This document shows, one piece after another, positions 8,076-56,100 of a stretch of 64,000 nt of DNA. Each line of letters begins with the position of its first letter. Positions within the stretch are counted from its first letter, which is position 1. The position numbers and the translations under genes were made by a program. The notes beneath the pieces are model-generated. The model was given only the letters and a program-made list of their open reading frames with translations, was not told the DNA's origin and made no database searches. This DNA comes from Carcharhinus longimanus (taxonomy: Eukaryota), in contig JASCQW010000112.1 of the NCBI GenBank assembly GCA_030264375.1, forward strand, positions 31,642,764-31,706,763, in the 5' to 3' direction.

Positions 8076-8192
8076 CTGGCCAAAACAAAAAAAGTGAACA
8101 TATTAAATAACTGTTTAAACAAGACTTGCTATTGTGTAGGAATTTCAAATGCAGCATGCAACAAATTACAATACAAAATGTAAAAAGATTAC

Positions 8193-8330
8193 CTCATAAA
8201 TGATACGCTGCACAAGATCAAATTCTCCTTCTAAAGAAGCATCTAGTAGTAAAGCTAGAGGATCGAATTTTACCCTCATTCCACAACCAGTCCTTTCTGA
8301 ATCAGGCTTTTTTAAATTTGTACGTTTAAT
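8193..8330 (-). CDS. PPP1R13B: ASPP1 exon with PP1-docking RVxF motif ([46 protein letters not shown])
   Basis: tttcctcag acceptor, gtaatc donor, 138 nt, phase 0->0; RVKF motif. Confidence 0.96.
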
Positions 8331-9574: not shown

Positions 9575-10370
9575 TCAAAGAACAAAGAAAACAAAGTAAG
9601 TTACAGCACAGGAACAGGCCCATCGGCCCTCCAAGCCTGCACTGACTTTCTATTTTCCTTGTATTCCACACTTGCTTCGTATGTTCCCAACCTCCTAGCT
9701 TTGACAAATGCTTCTTTTTTCTCTGACTAGGTTCACAATATCTCTCGTTAGCCAAGGTTCCCAAAATTTGCCATACTTATCCTTCATCCTTACATGACTA
9801 TGCCACTCCTGAATCCCTACCAACTTACACATGAAAGCCCCCCACATGCCAGATGTTGATTTGCTCTCAAACATCTACATTCTTCAGTTCCTGACTAATA
9901 TTGTTGTTATTATCCTTCCCCCAGTTTAGTAACTTGAGGACTACACTTATCTTGATCGAAAAGTACCTTAAAGCTTGCTGAATTGCGGTCACTGTTCCCA
10001 AACTGCTCCCCTACTGAAACACTGACCACCTGGCTGGGCTCATTCCCCAATACCAGGTCCAGTGTGGCTCCTTCCCTGTTTCAAGAAGCCCTTCTGGATA
10101 CTCCTTACAAACTCTGCTCCATCTATATCCTGAGCACTCAGTCCCAGTCAATATAGGGGAAATTAAAATCTCTCACCACAACAATCCTGTTACTTTTACA
10201 CCTTGCCAAAATTTGCCTACATATCTTTTTCTCAATCTCCTGCTGGCAGTTGGGTGGCCTATAGTAAACCCCCAACACTGTGACTACACCTTACCTATTC
10301 CTGAGCTCTACCCATATTGCCTTGCTGCATGAGCCCTCCAAGGTGTCCTCTCTGAGGACAGCTGATAATC
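9575..10370 (-). mobile_element. CR1-type LINE fragment (endonuclease region fused to a 3' tail)
   Basis: Closely similar to 13100-13870; the tail aagaacaaag...acagcacaggaacaggccc lies at 9575-9640. Confidence 0.75.
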
Positions 10371-10786
10371 TCCCAAGAAACTTCACAGGAATCATTGTAA
10401 ACAAATCATGGGGTCGAGCCAGATAAGGTGATATTAGATTAGCTGACCAAAAGCTTGGTCAAAGAGGGTGGTTTTAAGAAGTATATCAAGGAAAAGGGTC
10501 CTTTGTGCCTGCACCACCATTCACTATGAGCATGGCTGCCTGTAATTACATTTCTAGAGAGCTGGGGAAGGGCTTTGTGCGAAGTCCGATCATGAACTCT
10601 GCAGCTTGCTTGCAACTGAAAAAATATTTACAAAGTGTGACTAATTTTGAATAGAGATTGCGCTCTGCACTGACTCTACCCTACTTAAAAGCGAACATAT
10701 TTCTGCTAATAAATAACACACCCCTCCTCAAACTTGCTTTTTTGGTAACTAAATTAACTCAGCCTACTAGAATACTTGTCTCTTTC

Positions 10787-10792
10787 TTTATT
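10787..10792 (-). terminator. Candidate AATAAA for the CHRAC1-like terminal exon
   Basis: TTTATT on the plus strand about 370 nt past the CHRAC1-like stop, within an AT-rich UTR-like stretch. Confidence 0.4.
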
Positions 10793-11160
10793 TTTCCAAA
10801 CATACAAAAGTATATTTCACATATATACACAATATTATACCAAGTTTGTTCTGTTATTTACCAATAACACAACTAGGAAGGAAAAAAACTGATCTTTTCA
10901 AAAAAATACAGCAGTTTCCAATCATTGAACTGACGGAACTGTTAACACTAACTCCAGACTTCCTATTCGATCATTGTTCAGTTCTTCACAGTTGTTTAAT
11001 TTGTGGAATTTACGAATTGTGCATGTGTAAGTTGTGCTGACTTATCCCAAATGCACAATAGTCTTAAGGCTTTGTGTTTTCTTCTTGCTGCCTACTGAAA
11101 GCCTTTGGACAATTGTCAGCTAGATGCTGGTACAGTGAAAAAGCACTTTCTCAATTTCCT

Positions 11161-11318
11161 TTAGGATTCATTTTCTTCATCCTCCTCATCGTCATCCTCC
11201 TCATCACCCTCGTCATTTTCATCATCGTCACCTTCCCGATCTCCACCACCACCACCATCCTTCTCCTCCTCCAGTATCCGGAGGTATTCACTTGCCAAGA
11301 TCTTCTTCGGCAAGATAT
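11161..11318 (-). CDS. CHRAC1: Orphan terminal coding exon of CHRAC1 ([D]ILPKKILASEYLRILEEEKDGGGGGDREGDDDENDEGDEEDDDEEDEENES*)
   Basis: Acceptor attcttacag; phase-1 start; resembles the recalled human CHRAC1 C-terminus FLADILPKKILASKYLKMLKEEK + acidic tail; TAA at 11161-11163. Upstream CHRAC1 exons are not seen. Confidence 0.82.
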
Positions 11319-12055
11319 CTGTAAGAATATTACTGCATGGTTAAAGCGGATGTACTTTATATTAAGTTCTGAGGTAAAGTGTGGGACAAAGGCCGAAATG
11401 AGCCTTTGGTAGCAATACAAACCTGGTGATGGATTTTACACACTTAAATTTTGTTAAAAAGTGACCGCGATACTGCTGAACTGTGAAATAAAACTAAACT
11501 GGTTCACTAATAATTTTTATACCAAAAACCTGCCAACTGTAACCAGATGTGACTGCTGTGTCAGACTTTGGTGACTGACTCTGAAGCAACAGCCCATGCA
11601 GTTGTAAAAACTATCACCAGGCCTGAGGGATGGGCAAGAAGTGTAGTCCTAAAAGCAACAACATGAATTGGCTGAAATCGAGAGAATGAGTTTTCTCAAG
11701 CCATTGTAACTGACGCAAAGAATATCATCTCAGTGCTACTTCTGAGGCTTTTACTGAATTTCCTATTTCAGCGGTCTCCAAACTCCGATCTGGATGTGGC
11801 CCGCTGTGGGCCGTAGTTTGGAGACCCCCTGCCCTATTTGTAAAACTTGTATTGTTGGCTTTACGCTTTCCTCACAAGAGGAAATGTTCTCTGCATCTAC
11901 TCAAGCAAAACCTTACATTATTTTCTAGACCTACTGGGCCATCTTTCAACTCTTCNNNNNNNNNNNNNNNNNNNNNNNNNNNNNNNNNNNNNNNNNNNNN
12001 NNNNNNNNNNNNNNNNNNNNNNNNNNNNNNNNNNNNNNNNNNNNNNNNNNNNNNN

Positions 12056-14390
12056 ACTCCATCTGCCATCTCTCCACCCAAGTCTCCAGCCAATCTATGT
12101 CCTGCTGTATCCTCTGATGGTCTTCATCGTTATTTGCAAATCCACCAACCTTTGTGTCATCCACAAACTTACTAATCAAACTAGTTACATTTTCCTCTAA
12201 ATCATTTGTATATATTACAAACAGCAAAGGTCCCAGCTCTGATCCCTGAGAAATGTCACTTGTCACAGCCCTCCATTCAGAAACGCACCCTTCCACTGCT
12301 ACCCTCTGTCTTTTTTGACCGAGCCAGTTTTGTNNNNNNNNNNCCACCTTGCCAACTCACCTCTGATCCCATGCAACTTCACCTTCTGCACCAGTCTGCC
12401 ACAAGGGACCTTGTCAAAGGCCTTACTGAAGTCCATGTAGACAATATTCACTGCCTTCTTTGTCACTTCCTCGAAAAACCCGATCAAGTTAGTGAGACAC
12501 AACCTCCCCTTTTCAAAACATGTTGCCTCTCACTAATACATCCATTTATTTCCAAGTAGGAATAAATCCTGTCTTGAAAAATTCTCTTCAATAATTTCCC
12601 TACCACTGTCGTAAGGCTCACCAGCCTGTAATTACCTGGATTATTCTTGCTATCCTTCTTAAACAAAGGAACAATATTGGCTATCCTCCAATCCTATGGG
12701 ACCTCTCCTGTAACCAGTAAGGATATAAAGATTTCTCTCAATTCCTCCCATCCCTCTCTCAGTATTCTGGGATATATCCCATCAGGCTCTAGGGACTTGT
12801 CTACTTTAATGTTTCTCAAGATCCCCAATATCTCCTCCTTTTTGATCTCAACATGACTCAAACTATTTACATTTCCAGATTCATCATCCACCAAGCCCTT
12901 CTCTTTGATGAATACTAAGGCAAAGTACCGATTTAATAACTCACCCATTTTCTCTGGCTCCATGCATAGATTCCCTGAGTGGGCCAACCCTCTACATAGC
13001 TATCCTCTTGCTTTTTATATATGTATAAAAAGCCTTCGGATTTTCCTTAATCCAGCTGGTCAATGCTTTTTCATGACCCCTTTTAGCCCTCTTTACTCCT
13101 TTCTACTTTCCTTACATTCCACACTTTCTCATGTGTTCCCAGCCTCCGATCTTTGTCAAATGCTTCCTTTTTCTCTTTGACTAAGGCTCATAATATCTCT
13201 CGTTATTCAAGGTTCCCAAACTTGCCATACTTATCCTTCATCCTTGTGGGAATGTGCCGGTCCTGAATCCCTTTCAACTTATGCTTGAAAGCCTCCCACA
13301 TGTCAGATGTTGATTTGCCCTCAAACATCGGCCCCCAATCTACATTCTTCAGTTCCTGCCTAATATTGTTGGAATTAGCTTCCCCCAATTTAGCAACTTA
13401 ACTTGAGGACTTCACTTATCTTTATCCATCAGTACCTTAAAACTTGCTGAATTGTGATCACTGTTCCCAAACTGCTCCCTGACTGAAACATTGACCACCT
13501 GGCTGGGCTCATTCCCCAATACCAGGTCCAGTATGGCCCCTTCCCTAGTTGGACTATCTACATACTGTTTCAAGGAGTCCTCCTGGATGCTCCTTACAAA
13601 CTCTGCCCCAACCACACCCCTAGTACGTGAGTCCCAGTCAATATAGGGGAAGTTAAAATCTCCCACCACAACAACCCCGTTACTTTTACACCTTGCCAAA
13701 ATCTGCCTACACATCTGTTCCTCTATCTCCCACTGGCAGTTGGGCGGCCTATAGTAAATCCCCAACATTGAGACCACTCCTTTCCTATTCCTGAGCTCTA
13801 CCCATATTGCCTCGCTGTATGAGCCCTCCGAGAGGTCCTCCCAGAGTACAGCTGTAATATTCTCCTTAACCAGTAGTACAACTCCCCCACACCTTTTACA
13901 TCCCCCTCTATCTCTCCAGGGTACAGATGTTTCAGGTATGTTAAGATGCCAATCCTGTCCTTCCCTTAACCAAGTCTATATAATGGCAATATCATAGTTC
14001 CTAGTACTAATCCGAGCTATAGGTTCATCTGCCTTACCTGTTACACTTCTTGCATTGAAATAAATGCACTTCGGTCCACCAGACCCTCTTTGATTAGCAA
14101 CCCTACCCTGCCTGCTGTTTGAGTCTGACTGGCTCTACTCGCTGGTTCCCCTTCAGCTAATTCACCTTCGCTTTGGTTCCCAACCCCCTGCCAAATTAGT
14201 TTAAGTCCTCCCATGTGACACTAGCAAACTTCCCGGCCAGAATATTTTCCCGGCCAGTTTAGATGCAACCCGTTGTTCTTGTACAGGTTGATCCAGATAT
14301 CTGAAACCCTTCCTCCTACACCAGCTGTTCAACCACATATTGAGCTGCATTATCTTCCTATTCCTAGCCTCACTAGTATGTTCACTCCAG
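12056..14390 (-). mobile_element. CR1-type LINE ORF2 (APE endonuclease + RT N-half), disrupted
   Basis: GIYYRPPN, VVGDFNFPYIDW, LDLVLGN, SDHN (endonuclease); PGNYRLVSLT, YMDFSKAFDKVP, QGSELGPLLF, KFVDDTK (RT). Confidence 0.92.
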
Positions 14391-14952
14391 TTCATTGTAT
14401 ATATCAATGATTTGGGTCCTTTATCAACATGATCCCCATTTCAGTTCAAACCATGTACATACATGGAAAACTGTCACACAGATGGAACATTTTACTTTAG
14501 ACATAATTCCCAGTATAATGTTCATTAACTGTGAAGAAGATGATTTCTAATGTTTTGGACAAAACTTGTGAAAATGATATCCACATATCACATGATGCAA
14601 TGCAGTTAAGCCTTGTTCTAACTTCTCCAAAATTCAGAAGAGCTCTTCTATTACATCAATTCTACTTCCCATATCAGACTCACATGAAAGTTAAGAGAGA
14701 TTCCCAATGTAATGCCTAATTTGGGACAGAGTTGTCTTATTAACTAACAGAAATGATCTAAACTAATTTCATATATAGCATTTCTTGCCAAGAAGAAATT
14801 TGCATCCATTATCGAGGTTCAATTTAAAACCAGTTGGACAGTATCATAATTTACTCTGTTATTCAGGAAATAAAGCTTTAGAAAAAAGAGCCCAATGATT
14901 CAACTGATATTATTTGGTTTATAATTTATATGAAGAACAACTCAAAACTTAC

Positions 14953-15689
14953 AGGAGGGGGCAGTGGTACAGCAGGTGGTGGAGGAGCATCTTCCTCTGG
15001 TGACATCACCTCTGGCAAAGGACTTGGTAGTTGCTCCGTTTGAACAACAGCAGGATTATTGTTATTGTCCTCTATTGTCGCAGGAATTTCATTGTCATCT
15101 GTCTGAATCAATTCAGAATGTGGAGAAGGCAGCTGGTTATCATTGGCATCTGATGACGGTTGAACTTCAGGCTGAGTTGTTGGTTCAGGCTGCACAGAAC
15201 CAGACTCCACAATGCTGGTGTTACCATTATCAACATCTGCTAAAGCACCTACGTAGTCCTGCTGGTTACTGGGGAGATAAAATGGCATGTTATCCATACC
15301 TCCAGCTAGTGTATTAAAACGCTGATAGAGTAACTTCTGTATATTTGGTCCACTTGGGCCTTCAGGCTCCGTTATAGAACTGCGTTTCTTCAGAGGCCTT
15401 GGTGCATGTGCCAGCTTTTTCCTTAGAGCTTCAAGGTCAGCATCACTTTGATACCGTAATGGTGAGTGCACAATGGGCAATAATTTTGTAGGACTCAGAG
15501 GACGTGGGATGTTTTCAACATTCGAGTTGGCAGGTGGCAAGTTCTCATGCTCTGGATCTTTTTCAATACTAGTTTGGTTTTCATCACTGGTCGGAGGATG
15601 GGAACTTTGGAAAGGCTGATTATGAGCAAAAGGCAAAGGAGATGGGGAAGCAGAACCAGATCCAGATGACAATACTGGCTTTCCATACA
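14953..15689 (-). CDS. PPP1R13B: ASPP1 large proline-rich exon (MYGKPVL...PRPLSPTKL...[17 protein letters not shown]...PLPPP)
   Basis: cttttctag acceptor, gtaagt donor, 737 nt, phase 1->0; lies in ORF 14926..15690. Confidence 0.96.
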
Positions 15690-22920: not shown

Positions 22921-23034
22921 AACCCAAGCATCTGCTTTCATAGTTTTTAAAATGCAAGGATGAACCAGAGTCAAGACCCACATCCAAATTAGACACCACC
23001 CAGGAGCCGGTCAGCTTGTGTCTAAGCATTTCAT
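22921..23034 (-). CDS. PPP1R13B: Putative ASPP1 cassette exon B (DEMLRHKLTGSWVVSNLDVGLDSGSSLHFKNYESRCLG)
   Basis: Pyrimidine-rich acceptor tattttctgttctattatacatag, donor gtacgt; 114 nt, phase 1->1, open in the ASPP1 frame; shares W.VSNLD with exon A. Confidence 0.62.
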
Positions 23035-23402
23035 CTATGTATAATAGAACAGAAAATAGAAGACATATAACTGTAGAACACATTAGGTTTAAATTTTAAA
23101 TATTAGATGCATTTTTAGAAACAAGATTAAAATGTTACCATTTAGTGCTTTTTGATTGAAAACATACAACATGAACATTTAGCTCTACCACGTTTATTTA
23201 CATCTACATTTGGCTGCACAATAACACTCACTTGTATTTACAATAGATTCATAGGATTAATTTGTAACAAAAGTATTAAATGTAACCCGGAATTTTCCAA
23301 ATGTCACTTCTAAGGCAAGCAGAATGATTGTTTTATGCAAGCTTAAAGTATACCGCAGAAAATGTCCTTTAAGCAAAGTCAGTAACAGTTCCACAGACTC
23401 AC

Positions 23403-23558
23403 AATGTAGTTTGTCAGGAACAGAAGCTGCCAAGTGGTTCACACTATGATCTGGAGACTTTAGGGAGGCAGCAGAAGAAATTAAACCAGGATCCACTATG
23501 ATGTCTAAATTAGAAACTTTCCAAATCCCTGGAGGTTTTTTCAAACTGCCATCTGATT
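23403..23558 (-). CDS. PPP1R13B: Putative ASPP1 cassette exon A (ESDGSLKKPPGIWKVSNLDIIVDPGLISSAASLKSPDHSVNHLAASVPDKLH)
   Basis: Acceptor tttgacttcttggacag, perfect gtgagt donor; 156 nt, phase 1->1, open in the ASPP1 frame. Confidence 0.75.
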
Positions 23559-36427: not shown

Positions 36428-36629
36428 CAGATTTTGCCGTAGTCATAACATAGCCATCACTGCTAGATACAATCAGTGACTGAAGTTTTAAGACCTCTCC
36501 TGGTGATGACAGGTTACCTTCTGGTCTAGTTGCAGTAGAAACTTGGATGTAGGGTCCCACAGCAGCAACACGACCGGAGGTATTAGAGTGCGTCTGTGGT
36601 ACTGGTGTGCCATTAACTCGATTCAGCTG
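36428..36629 (-). CDS. PPP1R13B: ASPP1 exon (QLNRVNGTPVPQTHSNTSGRVAAVGPYIQV...TAKS)
   Basis: cttttccctttagCAG NAGNAG acceptor, gtaaac donor, 202 (or 199) nt, phase 0->1; RVAAVGPYIQ is conserved in ASPP1/2. Confidence 0.95.
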
Positions 36630-39119: not shown

Positions 39120-40440
39120 ATAGAATATTAGAGATCATAAAGGTTTACAGCATGGAAACAGGCACTTCAGCCCAATTTGTCCATGCTGCCTTTTTTTAAA
39201 GCCCCTAAGCTAATCCCAATTGCCCACATTTGGCCCATATCCCTCTATACCCATTGTACCCAGGTAACTATCTAAATGCTTTTGAAAAGATAAAATTGTA
39301 CCCGCCTCTACTACTACCTCTGGCAACTTGTTTCAGACACTCACCACCCTCTGAAAAATTGCCCCTCTGGGGACTTTTGTATCTCTCCCCTCTCACCTTA
39401 AACCTATGCCCTCTAGTTTTAGACTCCCCTATCTTTGGGAAAACATATTGACTCTCTTACTGGTCTATGCTCCTCATTCTTTGATAGACCTCTAAGGTCA
39501 CCCCTCAGCCTCCTCCTACGCTCTAGAGAAAAAAGTCCCAGTCCATCCAGTCTTTCCTTAAAACTCAATCCATCAAGTCCCAGTAGCATCCTAGTAAATC
39601 TTTTCTGCACACTTTCTAGTTTAATAATATCCTTTCTACAGATCGATAGACTTGTGTGGTATAAGATTTAGGATTAATGTAGAGTCACAGAGATCTACAG
39701 CACAGCAAAATCCCCTTGGCCCATTGAATCTATATCAGTCAAAGACAAACCATCCAACTATTCTAATCCTATTTTCCAGCACTTGGTCCATAGCCTTGTG
39801 TGTCCTGGCATCCCAAGAGCACATCTAAATATTTCTTAATTATTATGAGGGTCTCTGCCTCCACCACCCTTTCAGACAGTGAATTCCAGACTTCCACCAT
39901 CCCCTGGTTGAAAAAGCTTTTCCTCACATCCCCTCTCAACCTCCTGCCCCTTACCTTAAGTCTATGGCCCCCGGTCATTGATCCCTCCACTATGGAGAGG
40001 AGTTTCTTCCTGTCTACTCTATCTGTGCCCTTCTTAATCTCATACATCTCAATCATGTCCCCTCTCAGTCTCCTCTGCTCCAAGGAAAATAATCCCAGTC
40101 CATCCAATCTATTTTCATAACTAAAACGCTCCAGCCCGGGCAACATCCTGGTGAATCTCCTCTGCACCCTTTCCAGTGCTGTCACATCCCTCCTTTAATG
40201 TGGATTCTGGAACTACACACAATACTCTTGCTGTGGCCTAACCAACATTTTACATAGTTCCAGCATAACCTCCCAGCTCTTAAACGCTCTGCCTCAGCCA
40301 ATAAAGGCAAGTATACAATATGCTTTCTTAACCACTTTATCCACTGTCCTGCTACTTTAAGAGAGCAGTGTACATGCACACCAAAGTCCATCAGACATTG
40401 GTGCTTCACAGGCTCCTGCCATTCATTATGTCTTTCCTGT
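39120..40440 (-). mobile_element. Two tandem CR1 (HER1-like) 3' fragments
   Basis: ORFs 39419..39610 and 39769..40185 (LERVQRRFTRMLPGL...LGLFSLEQRRLRGD...VWNSL). Confidence 0.88.
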
Positions 40441-40761: not shown

Positions 40762-40898
40762 CTGCCTCGGTTGCTATGACTGTGATATTGTGCCAAGGCA
40801 TTTCTTCCCGGTCTAGTGGTTTTAATGTTACAATTGATCCATTGGCAGAATTTATGTTGAAGTATCTGTCCAAATCAGTATGTCGATCGATAGAGTAA
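40762..40898 (-). CDS. Orphan type II classical cadherin exon, EC4 region ([45 protein letters not shown])
   Basis: Acceptor tttgaactttccag, donor G|gtaagc, 137 nt, phase 2->1, no stops. LDRE Ca-binding motif plus DRHTDLDR and WHNITV are typical of CDH6/9/10/8/11-type cadherins. The paralog cannot be assigned. Confidence 0.88.
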
Positions 40899-41240: not shown

Positions 41241-41580
41241 TGGGGAGGTGATGGCCTCGTGGTATTATTGCTAGATCGTTAATCCAGAAACTCAGCTAAT
41301 GTTCTGGGGACCCAGGTTCGAATCTCGCCACAGAAGATGGTTGGAATTTGAATTCAATAAAAAGTATCTGGAATTAAGAGCCTACTAATGATCATCAACC
41401 ATTGTCTATTGTCAGAAAAGCCCATCTGGTTCCTTTAGAGAAGGAAATCTGCCGTCCTTACCTGGTCTACATGTGACTCCAGAGCCACAGCAATGTAGTT
41501 GACTCTCAACTGCCCTGAGGCAACTAGGGATGGGCAACAAATGCTGGCCCAGCCAGCGATGTCCATGTCCCACAAATGAA
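41241..41580 (+). mobile_element. SacSINE1/Deu-like tRNA-derived SINE, near full length
   Basis: tggcctcgtgg A box, ggttcgaatc B box, core ggaaatctgccgtccttacctggtctacatgtgactccagagccacagcaatg, LINE-like tail. Confidence 0.8.
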
Positions 41581-42302: not shown

Positions 42303-42455
42303 TGATGTACAGATGCCGGTGTTGGACTGGGGTAAACACAGTAAGAAGTCTCACAACACCAGGTTAGAATCCAACCAGTTTTTTTTAAATAAACCAGTTT
42401 TTTCAAATAAACCTGGTTGGACTCTAACCTGGTGTTGTGAGACTTCTTACTGTGT
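42303..42455. mobile_element. Miniature palindromic Penelope-derived insertion
   Basis: 43-bp inverted arms (42336-42378 / 42413-42455, 1 mismatch); direct repeat gtgtaagtattcc at 42290-42302 and 42452-42464. Confidence 0.85.
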
Positions 42456-42869: not shown

Positions 42870-43174
42870 TTTCATGGGCATCACAGGTAGGCCAGCATTC
42901 ATCCCTAGTTGCCCAAGACAAGTTGAAGAGTCAACCACATTGCTGTGGCTCTGGAGTCACATGTAGACCAGACCGGGTAAGGATGCTAGATTTCCTTCCC
43001 TAAAGAACATCAGTGAACCAGATGGTCTTTTCCGACAATTGACAATGGTCATCAATAGATTCTTAATTCAAATTCCACCATCTGCCGTGGTGGGATTCAA
43101 ACCCGGGTCCCCAGAATATTAGCTGAGCTTCTGGATTAATAGACTAACGATAATATCACTGGGCCACGGCCTCC
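42870..43174 (-). mobile_element. SacSINE1/Deu-like SINE
   Basis: Reverse complement of the 41241-41580 family. Confidence 0.8.
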
Positions 43175-43274
43175 NNNNNNNNNNNNNNNNNNNNNNNNNN
43201 NNNNNNNNNNNNNNNNNNNNNNNNNNNNNNNNNNNNNNNNNNNNNNNNNNNNNNNNNNNNNNNNNNNNNNNNNN

Positions 43275-43351: not shown

Positions 43352-45020
43352 CATTCTGTCAAGAAGCCAATTTTGTATCCATTTAGAGACCTCATCCTGG
43401 ATCCCATTAATGTCAGATGCAATATAATTTAGATAAATGAGGTTATTCACTTTGAAAGCAAGAACAAGGCAGCAGATTATTACCTGAATGGTTGTAAATT
43501 GGGAGAGTGAAGTGTGCAGTGGGACCTGGATGTTGTTGTGCATAGTCGCTGAAGGTAAGCATGCAGGTACAGCAGGTGGTAAAGGAGGCAAATGGCCTTC
43601 ATTGCAAGATGTTTCGAGCACAGGAGCAGGGATGTGTTGTTGCAATTATACAGAACCTTCGTGAGGCCACATCTGCAATACTGTGCGTAGTTTTGGTCTC
43701 CTTTTCTGAGGAGGGATGGTCTTGTTCGAGGGAGTGCAGCGAAGGTTTACCAGGCTGATTCTGAGGATGGCGATATTGATGTATGAGGAGAGATTAACTA
43801 GGCTAGAATTCTTTTTGCCGAAGTTCAAATGAATAACGGGGTATGTCTGAGACTTACAAAATTCTAACAGGACTAGACAAGATAGATGCAGGAAGGACGT
43901 TCCCAATGGTGAGAGTGTCCAGAACCAGGGGGTGACAGTCTGAAGATTCAGGGTAGACCATTTAAGATAGAGATAAGAAAGCATTTCTTCACCCAAAGAG
44001 CGGTATGCCTGTGGAATTCACTACCATAGGAAGAAGATGATGCCAAAACATTGAATGTATTCACAAGACGACGAGATATAGCAGCTGGGCCAAAAGGAAT
44101 CAAAGATTATGGGAAGAAAGCAGGATTATAGAGTCATAGAAACAATCCAACTTGACCATGCTGCCCGTTTTTTTTTAAACCCCTGAACTAATCCCAATTG
44201 TCTGCACTGGGTCCATATCCCTCGATATCCAAGGTACCCACGTAACTATCTAAATGCTTCTTAAAAGACAAAATTGTACCCGTCTCTACTACCCACCTCT
44301 GGCAGCTTGTTTCAGACACCTACCAGCCTCTATGTGAAAAAATTACCCCTCTGAACACTATTGTATCTCTCCCCTCACATCTTAAACCTATGCCCTCTAG
44401 TTTTAGACTCCCCTACCTTTGGGATAAGATATTTACTATCTAGCTGATCTGTGCCCCTTGTGATTTTATAGGCCTCTATAAGGTCACCCCTCAGCCTCCT
44501 ACCCCCACAGAAAAAAATGTCCCAGTCTATCCAGCCTCTTCTTACAACTCAAATCTTCAAGTCCCAGTACCATCCAAGTAAATCTTTATTTACTACACTC
44601 TTTCTAGTTTAATAATATCCTTTCTATAATAGGGTGACCAGAATTGCACACAGTATTCTAAGTGTGGCCGTACCAATGTCTAGTACAAGTTCAACAAGAC
44701 ATTCCAACCCCTGTATTCAATGTTCTGACCGATGAAACCAAGCATGCTGAATGCCTTCTTCACCACTCTGTCCACCTGTGACTCCACTTTCAAGAAGCTA
44801 TGAACACATACACCTAGATCTCTTTGTTCTGTAACTTTCCTCAATGTCTTACCATTAACCGAGCAAGTCCTGCCCTGGTTCAATCTACCAAAATGCATCA
44901 CCTCGCATTTGTCTAAATTAAACTCCATTTGCCACTCGTCAGCGCACTGGCCCAATTGATCAAGATCCTGTTGCAATTGGAGATAACTTTCTTCGCTATC
45001 CATTATGCCACCTATCTTGG
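43352..45020. mobile_element. Adjacent CR1 fragments (plus strand ~43400-44130, minus strand ~44130-45020)
   Basis: ORF 44680..45003 WQMEFNLDKCEVMHFG...RDLGV; the minus copy closely resembles 39120-39640. Confidence 0.8.
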
Positions 45021-54569: not shown

Positions 54570-56100
54570 AAAAATATCATCCATGAGGTGTGAAATAGCT
54601 AGCAAGGACTCCATTTATTGTTTATCCATAATTGCTCTTGAGAAGATGGTGGTAACTTTCCTTCTCAAACCACTGCAATCTGTTGTAGCTATACCCACTG
54701 TTGTTAGAAAGATGTTCCAGGATTCTGACCCAGTAATGATGAAGAAATGGCAATATAGCTCCAAATCAAGATGGTGTGACTTTTGGAGAGGAGCTTGGAG
54801 AGGGTGGTGCTCCCATAAGTCTACTGCCCTTGTCTATCGAGGTGGGAGAAGCTGTGGGTTTAGAAGTTGCTGATTAAGTAGGTTTTGAGAGTTTTGCAGC
54901 AAGTCTAGTATATAGAACATACGGTTACCACTATGCCGAAGAGAGTGAATGTTTATGAGAATGTGATGCCAATCAAGTGGACTGCTGTGTCCTGGATGGC
55001 ATTGAGCTTTCGAGCATCGTTGGAACTGTACTCATTCAAGCAGACAGAAAGCATTCCATCACACTCCTGACTTACATATGGTAGACTGGCTTTGGGGAGT
55101 CAGGAGGGTAGTTACCAGTCACGGAATTTCCTGCTCTTGTGGCCACTGTATTTATTTAGTTGGCCCAGTTCAATTTCTGGTCAATGGTAACCCCAGGATA
55201 TTGGGGGATTCAGCAATGGCAATTGATGACAGTTAGATTTTCCCTTGTTTGAGATGGTCATTGCCTGGCAATTGAGAGGTATGAATGTTACTTGCCAATC
55301 ATTAACCCTGCCGGAAGGTTGTCCAGGTCTTGATGCAAGTGGACGTGGACTNNNNNNNNNNNNNNNNNNNNNNNNNNNNNNNNNNNNNNNNNNNNNNNNN
55401 NNNNNNNNNNNNNNNNNNNNNNNNNNNNNNNNNNNNNNNNNNNNNNNNNNNGGACTGCTTCATCGCAAATGGTATAGTTCACTGTGCAGCCACCTGCATA
55501 CACTAAAATTGACCTTATGATAGAGGGACGGTCACTGATGAAGCAGCTGAAGATGGTTGAGCCTAGGACACTTCCCCAAGGAACACATGCGATGTTGTCC
55601 TGCAGCAGAGATGATTGTCCTTCCAACAATCACAACCATCTTCCTCTGTGCTAGGTATGACTCCAACCAGTGTTGAGTACCCCCCACCTCTATTCTCACT
55701 GACTCCAGTTTTGCTAGGAGTCAGATTCAGTCAAATGCTGACTTAATGTTAAGGGCAGTTACTTTCACCTCACAAATTCAGCACTTTTGTCAATTATTGG
55801 AAGAGATTATTGTAATAAGAGCAGGAATTTAGTTGGCCTGATGGGACCCAAACTGAGCGTCAGTGAGCAGGATATTTCTGTGCAAGGGCCACTTAATAGC
55901 ACCGTCAGCGACAACTTCCATTACTTTGCTGATGATCAAGCCTAGAATGATGGAGCTGTAATTGGTCAGCTTGGAATTATCCTGTTTCTTGTGGGCAGGA
56001 CATAACTGGACAATTTCCACATTGTTGAGCAGATGCCAGCACTGTAGCTGGTCTGGAACAGATCGGCTATCACGTGTCTATCTCTGCAGCACAAATCTTA
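54570..56100 (-). mobile_element. Old CR1/L2-group LINE RT fragment (gap inside)
   Basis: VPWGSVLGSTIFSCFISD and LIISKVME...LLTDAQFG in ORFs 55288..55629 and 55829..56020. Confidence 0.75.

Follow-up and report, generated by a model that had tools for sequence, protein, structure and literature searches.

The host gene and the CHRAC1 block

The window analyzed here, a 64,000-nt stretch of the Carcharhinus longimanus assembly, is occupied on its minus strand by PPP1R13B, the gene for ASPP1, a partner of p53 and PP1. Mapping of four shark ASPP1 proteins placed 15 exons in collinear order on this strand between 56.4 kb and 2.0 kb; the host gene is complete and collinear in the window. With Mustelus asterias PPP1R13B, the large exon at 15690-14950 shares 98% identity. 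Some variation in exon use was seen along the gene: two minus-strand exons (23377-23558 and 22922-23034) are used in a Cetorhinus isoform, one of them in Stegostoma, and both are skipped in the mapped Mustelus and Scyliorhinus isoforms, and the exon at 36626 has a longer form reaching 36429. Tandem NAGNAG-type acceptors lie at 36629/36626 and 38870/38867 (minus strand), and we infer that they match isoforms one residue apart.

One intron of this gene, 6622 nt long and lying between 14953 and 8330, contains on the same strand the last coding exon of a different gene, CHRAC1, together with flanking noncoding DNA (the CHRAC1 block):

14953..15689, minus strand: ASPP1 exon upstream of the host intron, with a phase-0 donor
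11322..11955, minus strand: presumed CHRAC1 intron DNA, reaching a 100-N gap
11319..11321, minus strand: splice acceptor CAG of the CHRAC1 exon, with a weak polypyrimidine tract
11161..11318, minus strand: CHRAC1 terminal coding exon, phase 1, 51 codons plus TAA, comprising the end of the histone-fold helix and the acidic tail
10787..11160, minus strand: presumed 3′ UTR, ending in AATAAA (10792-10787)
8186..8330, minus strand: next ASPP1 exon, on the downstream side of the host intron, whose frame continues that of the exon at 14953..15689

The original prediction had described a CHRAC1 terminal exon inside a same-strand ASPP1 intron, and both the collinear exon mapping and the in-frame junction of the neighboring ASPP1 exons bear out that location. 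The minus-strand acceptor and the phase-1 open frame that it reported are also present: the exon opens at 11318 with 2 nt that finish a split codon, continues for 51 codons and closes with TAA at 11163-11161. Its assignment to the C-terminus of CHRAC1 was upheld, with no better match to any other protein. All nine matches at E ≤ 10 in a homologue search with the exon (among 1116 candidates) were named CHRAC1, the best seven being shark or ray CHRAC1 with E values of 2.6e-10 to 7.7e-7. When six full-length CHRAC1 orthologues were aligned to the window by tblastn, each gave a sole match at 11325-11164 (E 1e-18 to 1e-23), with homology beginning at the split Asp codon and the next match at E 0.39. 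Since the full-length orthologues match the terminal exon only, exons 1-2, which encode the histone fold, are absent from the sequenced part of the window. The exon peptide returned a single irrelevant match (E 2.5) in a PDB sequence search and 0 families in Pfam.

The exon retains all 12 columns that are invariant across a 17-sequence alignment, as well as the terminal ENES, and its acidic tail has a length of 51 compared with 50-51 in eight sharks. Judged from these residues it looks like part of a gene under selection. With a crude matrix its acceptor scored -3.0, whereas the 15 ASPP1 acceptors ranged from -1.5 to 12.3, and a second AG lies 14 nt upstream of it.

Upstream of the exon, 634 nt of noncoding DNA and the acceptor have been kept, and no poly(A) tail follows the block, the longest cue being a 6-A run at 10743; the earlier conclusion that this is not a processed retrocopy thus holds. 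The first ~130 nt of the presumed intron (the 11955-11845 part) weakly resemble the 3′ part of an old LINE, a likeness whose three scores were reached by 24, 349, and 320 of 500 shuffles. On the other side, the AATAAA that had been cited at 10787-10792 is indeed there, with an ATTAAA at 11000-10995 also within the presumed 3′ UTR, but it is not evidence by itself because 55% of shuffles of the surrounding 621-nt stretch contain one. The sequence extends ~250 nt beyond it into other old repeats. The left limit of 10540 originally given for the block did not hold up, being merely the start of repeat remnants, and the true junction could be at any point as far down as ~9590.

LINE copies, repeat remnants, and gaps around the block

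The block is bracketed by two copies of a CR1-type LINE and adjoins a scaffold gap:

12056..14390, minus strand: CR1-type LINE copy A, 5′-truncated, decayed, cut by the gap inside its reverse transcriptase region; upper bracket
11956..12055, no strand: 100-N scaffold gap of placeholder size, which can hide any length
10374..10540, minus strand: two old repeat-tail remnants, head to tail (a LINE/SINE tail at 10538-10496 and a second tail family at 10495-10380)
9590..10373, minus strand: CR1-type LINE copy B, with a ~55-nt 3′ tail directly after its endonuclease region; lower bracket
14400..14422, minus strand: upper copy of a 23-mer resembling a target-site duplication (TSD), 19/23 identical to 10504-10482; borderline
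10482..10504, minus strand: lower copy of this 23-mer, spanning the join of the two old repeat tails

The same-strand CR1 upstream and the 100-N gap are both as the original prediction had them; it had omitted copy B below the block as well as the second foreign exon described below. Copy A contains Exo_endo_phos_2 (E 7.6e-15) and RVT_1 (E 9.6e-7) domains in stop-free stretches never above 187 codons. Copy B belongs to the same subfamily, lies in the same orientation and aligns with A over 10373-9646, the two differing by 12.4% divergence and 10 frameshifting indels, with a longest identical run of 41 nt. The likeness stops at 9646 / 13099, where B jumps to its ~55-nt 3′ tail; this tail could equal the true end of the gap-severed copy A. 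We take the repeat-tail remnants to belong to the CR1/L2 families.

The junction between copy A and the CHRAC1 block is the 100-N gap itself, and no N separates the block from three ASPP1 exons at 8330-6208. The window as a whole is fragmented, with nine gaps in 64 kb, most of them edged by a repeat on one side. A 10-N gap at 12334-12343 lies inside copy A and the gap at 55352-55451 likewise lies inside a LINE reading frame, the flanks of the latter overlapping by 5 nt; because these two gaps in LINE frames miss almost nothing, the N counts are best read as placeholders. A young repeat, presumably Penelope-like, forms a near-perfect palindrome of 120 nt (90% self-complementary) at 42336-42455, and copies of this repeat edge several gaps (29701, 33017, and 43275). 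The window gave 0 matches in Rfam and 0 tRNA genes with ARAGORN.

The two copies of the 23-mer flank copy A and the block together, the upper one 12-14 nt above A and the lower one just below the block. A 19/23 match was reached by 11 of 5000 resamples, by 40 of 4000 real pairs, and by 92 of 1500 trials with a wider search space, giving a P of 0.002 to 0.06 that varies with the search space. Other repeat-tail copies in the window align with each half of the lower copy. The 8-mer adjoining the upper copy (14399) is found again at 10399.

A second foreign exon

Some 30 kb away, another ASPP1 intron contains an internal cadherin exon with a similar layout:

44147..44626, minus strand: LINE copy C, which brackets the cadherin block on its upper side, beyond the 100-N gap at 43175-43274
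40762..40898, minus strand: internal cadherin exon, 137 nt, with AG and GT present (PF00028, E 8.6e-9)
39172..39638, minus strand: LINE copy D, the corresponding bracket on the lower side

The exon lies on the ASPP1 strand, downstream of the gap. Copies C and D form a direct pair of a subfamily different from that of A and B, 14.3% apart, with a longest identical run of 35 nt. With 60 cadherin queries, no other cadherin-like piece and none of the neighboring cadherin exons were found in the window. Attempts to name the cadherin subfamily failed, as PDB, Atlas, and a representative search support a cadherin repeat only; we take the exon to be that of a type II classical cadherin. The best flanking repeat of the cadherin block scored 12 in nine comparisons, so nothing comparable to the 23-mer of the CHRAC1 block was seen there. 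An inverted SINE-like pair (41244-41567 / 42873-43174, 73% identical, 1.3 kb apart) lies inside the cadherin block.

A search for a third foreign exon with Pfam covered ~275 distinct stretches (132 + 146), chosen by composition among 1016 stop-free stretches of at least 33 aa, and yielded only the cadherin and the LINE endonuclease and reverse transcriptase domains. Rota_NS6, DHC_N2, Ig_TgrO1, and Erv26 gave matches below the cut-off (E 0.002-0.008) that we treated as noise, and a home-made splice-site scan was abandoned as insensitive after it missed the known cadherin exon. Further foreign exons may exist, since the Pfam scan is also blind to the CHRAC1 exon.

If spliced into ASPP1, the CHRAC1 exon would give an out-of-frame end of 55 residues and the cadherin exon would lead to a stop 15 residues on, in both cases before the ankyrin-SH3 region. 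Neither piece is present in any of 168 fetched ASPP-like proteins.

Linkage of CHRAC1 and PPP1R13B in cartilaginous fishes

Linkage was judged from the length of the sequence that carries each named protein, a proxy that assumes one assembly version per species. By this measure CHRAC1 and PPP1R13B lie apart, on separate sequences, in 11 of the 12 cartilaginous fishes compared, a set that holds no carcharhiniform (ground shark). The lengths for CHRAC1 versus PPP1R13B, in Mb, are:

Carcharodon, 199 versus 116
Cetorhinus, 180 versus 102
Heterodontus, 209 versus 131
Heptranchias, 143 versus 87
Stegostoma, 131 versus 96
Rhincodon, 121 versus 94
Pristis, 102 versus 150
Hemitrygon, 225 versus 211
Hypanus, 215 versus 212
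Rhinoraja, 94 versus 62
Callorhinchus, 126 versus 24
Narcine, 376 for both

The two Narcine accessions are ~5800 numbers apart, which, if accession numbers follow position, suggests distant positions. Species with one gene or no length were left out (Scyliorhinus canicula, S. torazame, Mustelus, two Chiloscyllium, Hemiscyllium, Amblyraja, Leucoraja, two Mobula, and Pristiophorus), and Mustelus CHRAC1 was not among the matches of either CHRAC1 homologue search. Because 11 of the 12 relatives have the genes on different sequences, a CHRAC1 gene nested in PPP1R13B is not ancestral. In mammals, CHRAC1 presumably lies beside TRAPPC9 and AGO2, and the literature entries retrieved are consistent with this placement. 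Among the literature passages retrieved, no link between CHRAC1 and PPP1R13B was found save for two transcriptome studies that name both once.

Origin of the foreign exons

The original prediction offered three explanations, namely 3′ transduction by the upstream CR1, a nested CHRAC1 gene with its first exons in the gap, and a scaffolding misjoin, of which the last is the best supported, as judged from the LINE brackets, the gaps, and the second exon with the same layout. In our most likely reading the CHRAC1 block is the shark's own genuine last exon, which a repeat-mediated error of assembly has probably placed in the ASPP1 intron. The two foreign exons lie 638 (CHRAC1) and 2277 nt (cadherin) from a 100-N gap, and each occupies the end nearest the gap in a segment, bounded by gaps, in which three ASPP1 exons are also found. 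The window holds 11 repeat pairs of at least 250 nt. Just two of them are more than 80% identical, and it is these that bracket the foreign exons, as direct repeats. None of the 15 ASPP1 exons lies between close direct pairs, and the probability that two random points would both be bracketed is ~0.03, a figure calculated post hoc. A LINE pair and a gap around each foreign exon is the layout of a repeat-mediated misjoin, which favors the artefact reading; shuffling of unique sequence between repeat copies, mimicking biological rearrangement, is a class of mis-assembly that has been described (PMC2397507). With the block joined N-free to ASPP1 exons, misordered scaffolds would not suffice as an explanation, and a chimeric contig is required.

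We infer that the assembly switched between LINE copies. The ASPP1 intron would hold one CR1 copy and the CHRAC1 locus related copies, and a contig-extension, gap-filling, or overlap-merging step may have jumped between them via an identical stretch of 30-41 nt. The assembly would then have run through ~1.6-2.3 kb of the CHRAC1 locus, with its native intron and 3′ flank, and the leftover break would have been recorded as 100 N. The cadherin locus 30 kb away would have undergone the same misjoin, and nothing biological would then be occurring at ASPP1. The point of the switch is invisible, since neither A and B (41 nt) nor C and D (35 nt) share a tract above chance. On this account the native CHRAC1 locus in the assembly probably lacks its terminal exon or breaks at it.

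The state of the exon bears on its age. In a neutral simulation at half the A-B divergence, 21% of the sequences kept the frame, the AG, and the stop, and 2.5% kept the invariant residues and ENES as well, so that an undecayed CHRAC1 exon beside a decayed CR1 has a P of ~0.025 at that divergence. An undecayed exon fits a working gene; it stayed intact in 67% of simulations at 1% divergence, so a very recent real insertion also fits. Besides the N-free join, other observations stand against an artefact: a borderline 19/23 TSD-like repeat flanks CR1 A and the block, the acceptor of the CHRAC1 exon scores lower than all 15 ASPP1 acceptors, and both foreign exons lie on the ASPP1 strand, which is expected in 1 in 4 cases by chance.

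If the layout were real, single-exon pieces would have been copied repeatedly into genes in the shark lineage via recombination between, or read-through from, diverged CR1-type LINEs, which we consider unlikely. A duplication at the DNA level, in which a CR1-bounded CHRAC1 piece, either copied or cut out as a circle, recombined into a CR1 of the ASPP1 intron, with the cadherin piece following likewise, would also predict direct-repeat brackets (CR1-block-CR1) and an N-free join to the ASPP1 exons. It requires, however, two independent events in one gene, each finishing beside a gap, and partners 12-14% diverged are poor recombination substrates. Both inserts would be same-strand exon traps that truncate ASPP1, and the CHRAC1 exon has not decayed. 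Circle-mediated insertional duplication has been reported in human (PMC7188851), and for the present locus we regard such a duplication as quite improbable.

Capture through RNA seems less likely still and deserves little credence. An unspliced read-through RNA from the CR1, ending at the tail remnant 10538-10500, would have been reverse-transcribed into the ASPP1 intron, either by classical 3′ transduction or with the RNA starting at a CR1 located within CHRAC1 intron 2; the target-site duplication would then be represented by 14422-14400 and 10504-10482. A same-strand CR1 does lie directly upstream of the block, whose end is a LINE/SINE-tail remnant with the 19/23 repeat after it. Yet there is no poly(A) tail, the sequence runs on beyond AATAAA, the tail remnant is without the terminal part found in other copies, and both halves of the lower 23-mer align with known repeat tails. 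A target-site duplication only 83% identical implies an old event, at odds with the undecayed exon; the cadherin block has no such repeat, and CR1 B is left unexplained. CR1 is reported to recognize its own 3′ sequence (PMC5470649 and PMC5729268), which limits what it can move, and would need its own 3′ hairpin and microsatellite; stringent 3′ recognition in general and the shark HE1/HER1 pair are covered in PMC3747384. Lacking an A-tail, with a decayed LINE beside an intact exon and this need for its own 3′ end, CR1 3′ transduction as first proposed is poorly supported. The nested-gene proposal, that a whole functional CHRAC1 moved into the ASPP1 intron with its promoter and first two exons concealed by the 100-N gap, fares worst and is scarcely credible. 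The exon is intact and looks constrained, and a 100-N placeholder may hide any length; nevertheless 97-99 upstream codons and a promoter must sit in that gap, exons 1-2 are without a match in the sequenced window, and the different sequences in 11 of 12 relatives contradict it. A same-strand gene with a poly(A) signal would moreover endanger ASPP1, and the cadherin exon, without neighboring exons, would be left unexplained.

Returning to the assembly error, the sequence and the gene identity are correct, and the placement is probably an artefact of a known kind. If so, pieces of DNA with exons have been exchanged between loci at LINE copies in this assembly, N-free on one side, and claims of gene loss, pseudogenes, or exon shuffling for CHRAC1, the cadherin, and probably many other genes need read support. 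If the layout is real, CR1-type repeats move host exons in sharks, that is, exon shuffling by a LINE class thought incapable of it; ASPP1 would then bear two same-strand exon traps, the CHRAC1 one with a poly(A) signal, and a form of ASPP1 without the ankyrin-SH3 end would be possible.

Comparison with known systems

No matching case was found in the parts of the literature retrieved on CR1 transduction, shark mis-assembly, misplaced exons, and HER1. The CHRAC1 exon resembles Heterodontus francisci CHRAC1 and Scyliorhinus canicula XP_038664661.1, with 18/19 and 17/19 identical residues at the conserved exon start, and shares with shark and ray CHRAC1 (CHRAC15) an equally long acidic tail ending in ENES. 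Unlike those genes, it is a last exon alone, inside PPP1R13B, with no PF00808 histone-fold part in the window.

As in L1 3′ transduction (PMC5470649), intron-containing genomic DNA lies downstream of a same-strand LINE; in contrast to it, the element is of CR1 type, there is no poly(A) tail, the target-site duplication is doubtful, a second LINE lies below the block, and the ages of LINE and exon disagree. Duplication through extrachromosomal circular DNA (eccDNA; Takahashi and Innan 2020, PMC7188851) likewise leaves a genomic fragment at a distant site with no RNA hallmarks, but here there are two cases in one gene, both beside gaps. Repeat-induced mis-assembly (Phillippy et al. 2008, PMC2397507) is a class defined by read-level signatures, and the comparison made here is at the level of the assembly only; the brackets at this locus are 12-14% diverged rather than near-identical. 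The arrangement is nonetheless that of the class, both blocks being foreign unique DNA between repeat copies of the same orientation.
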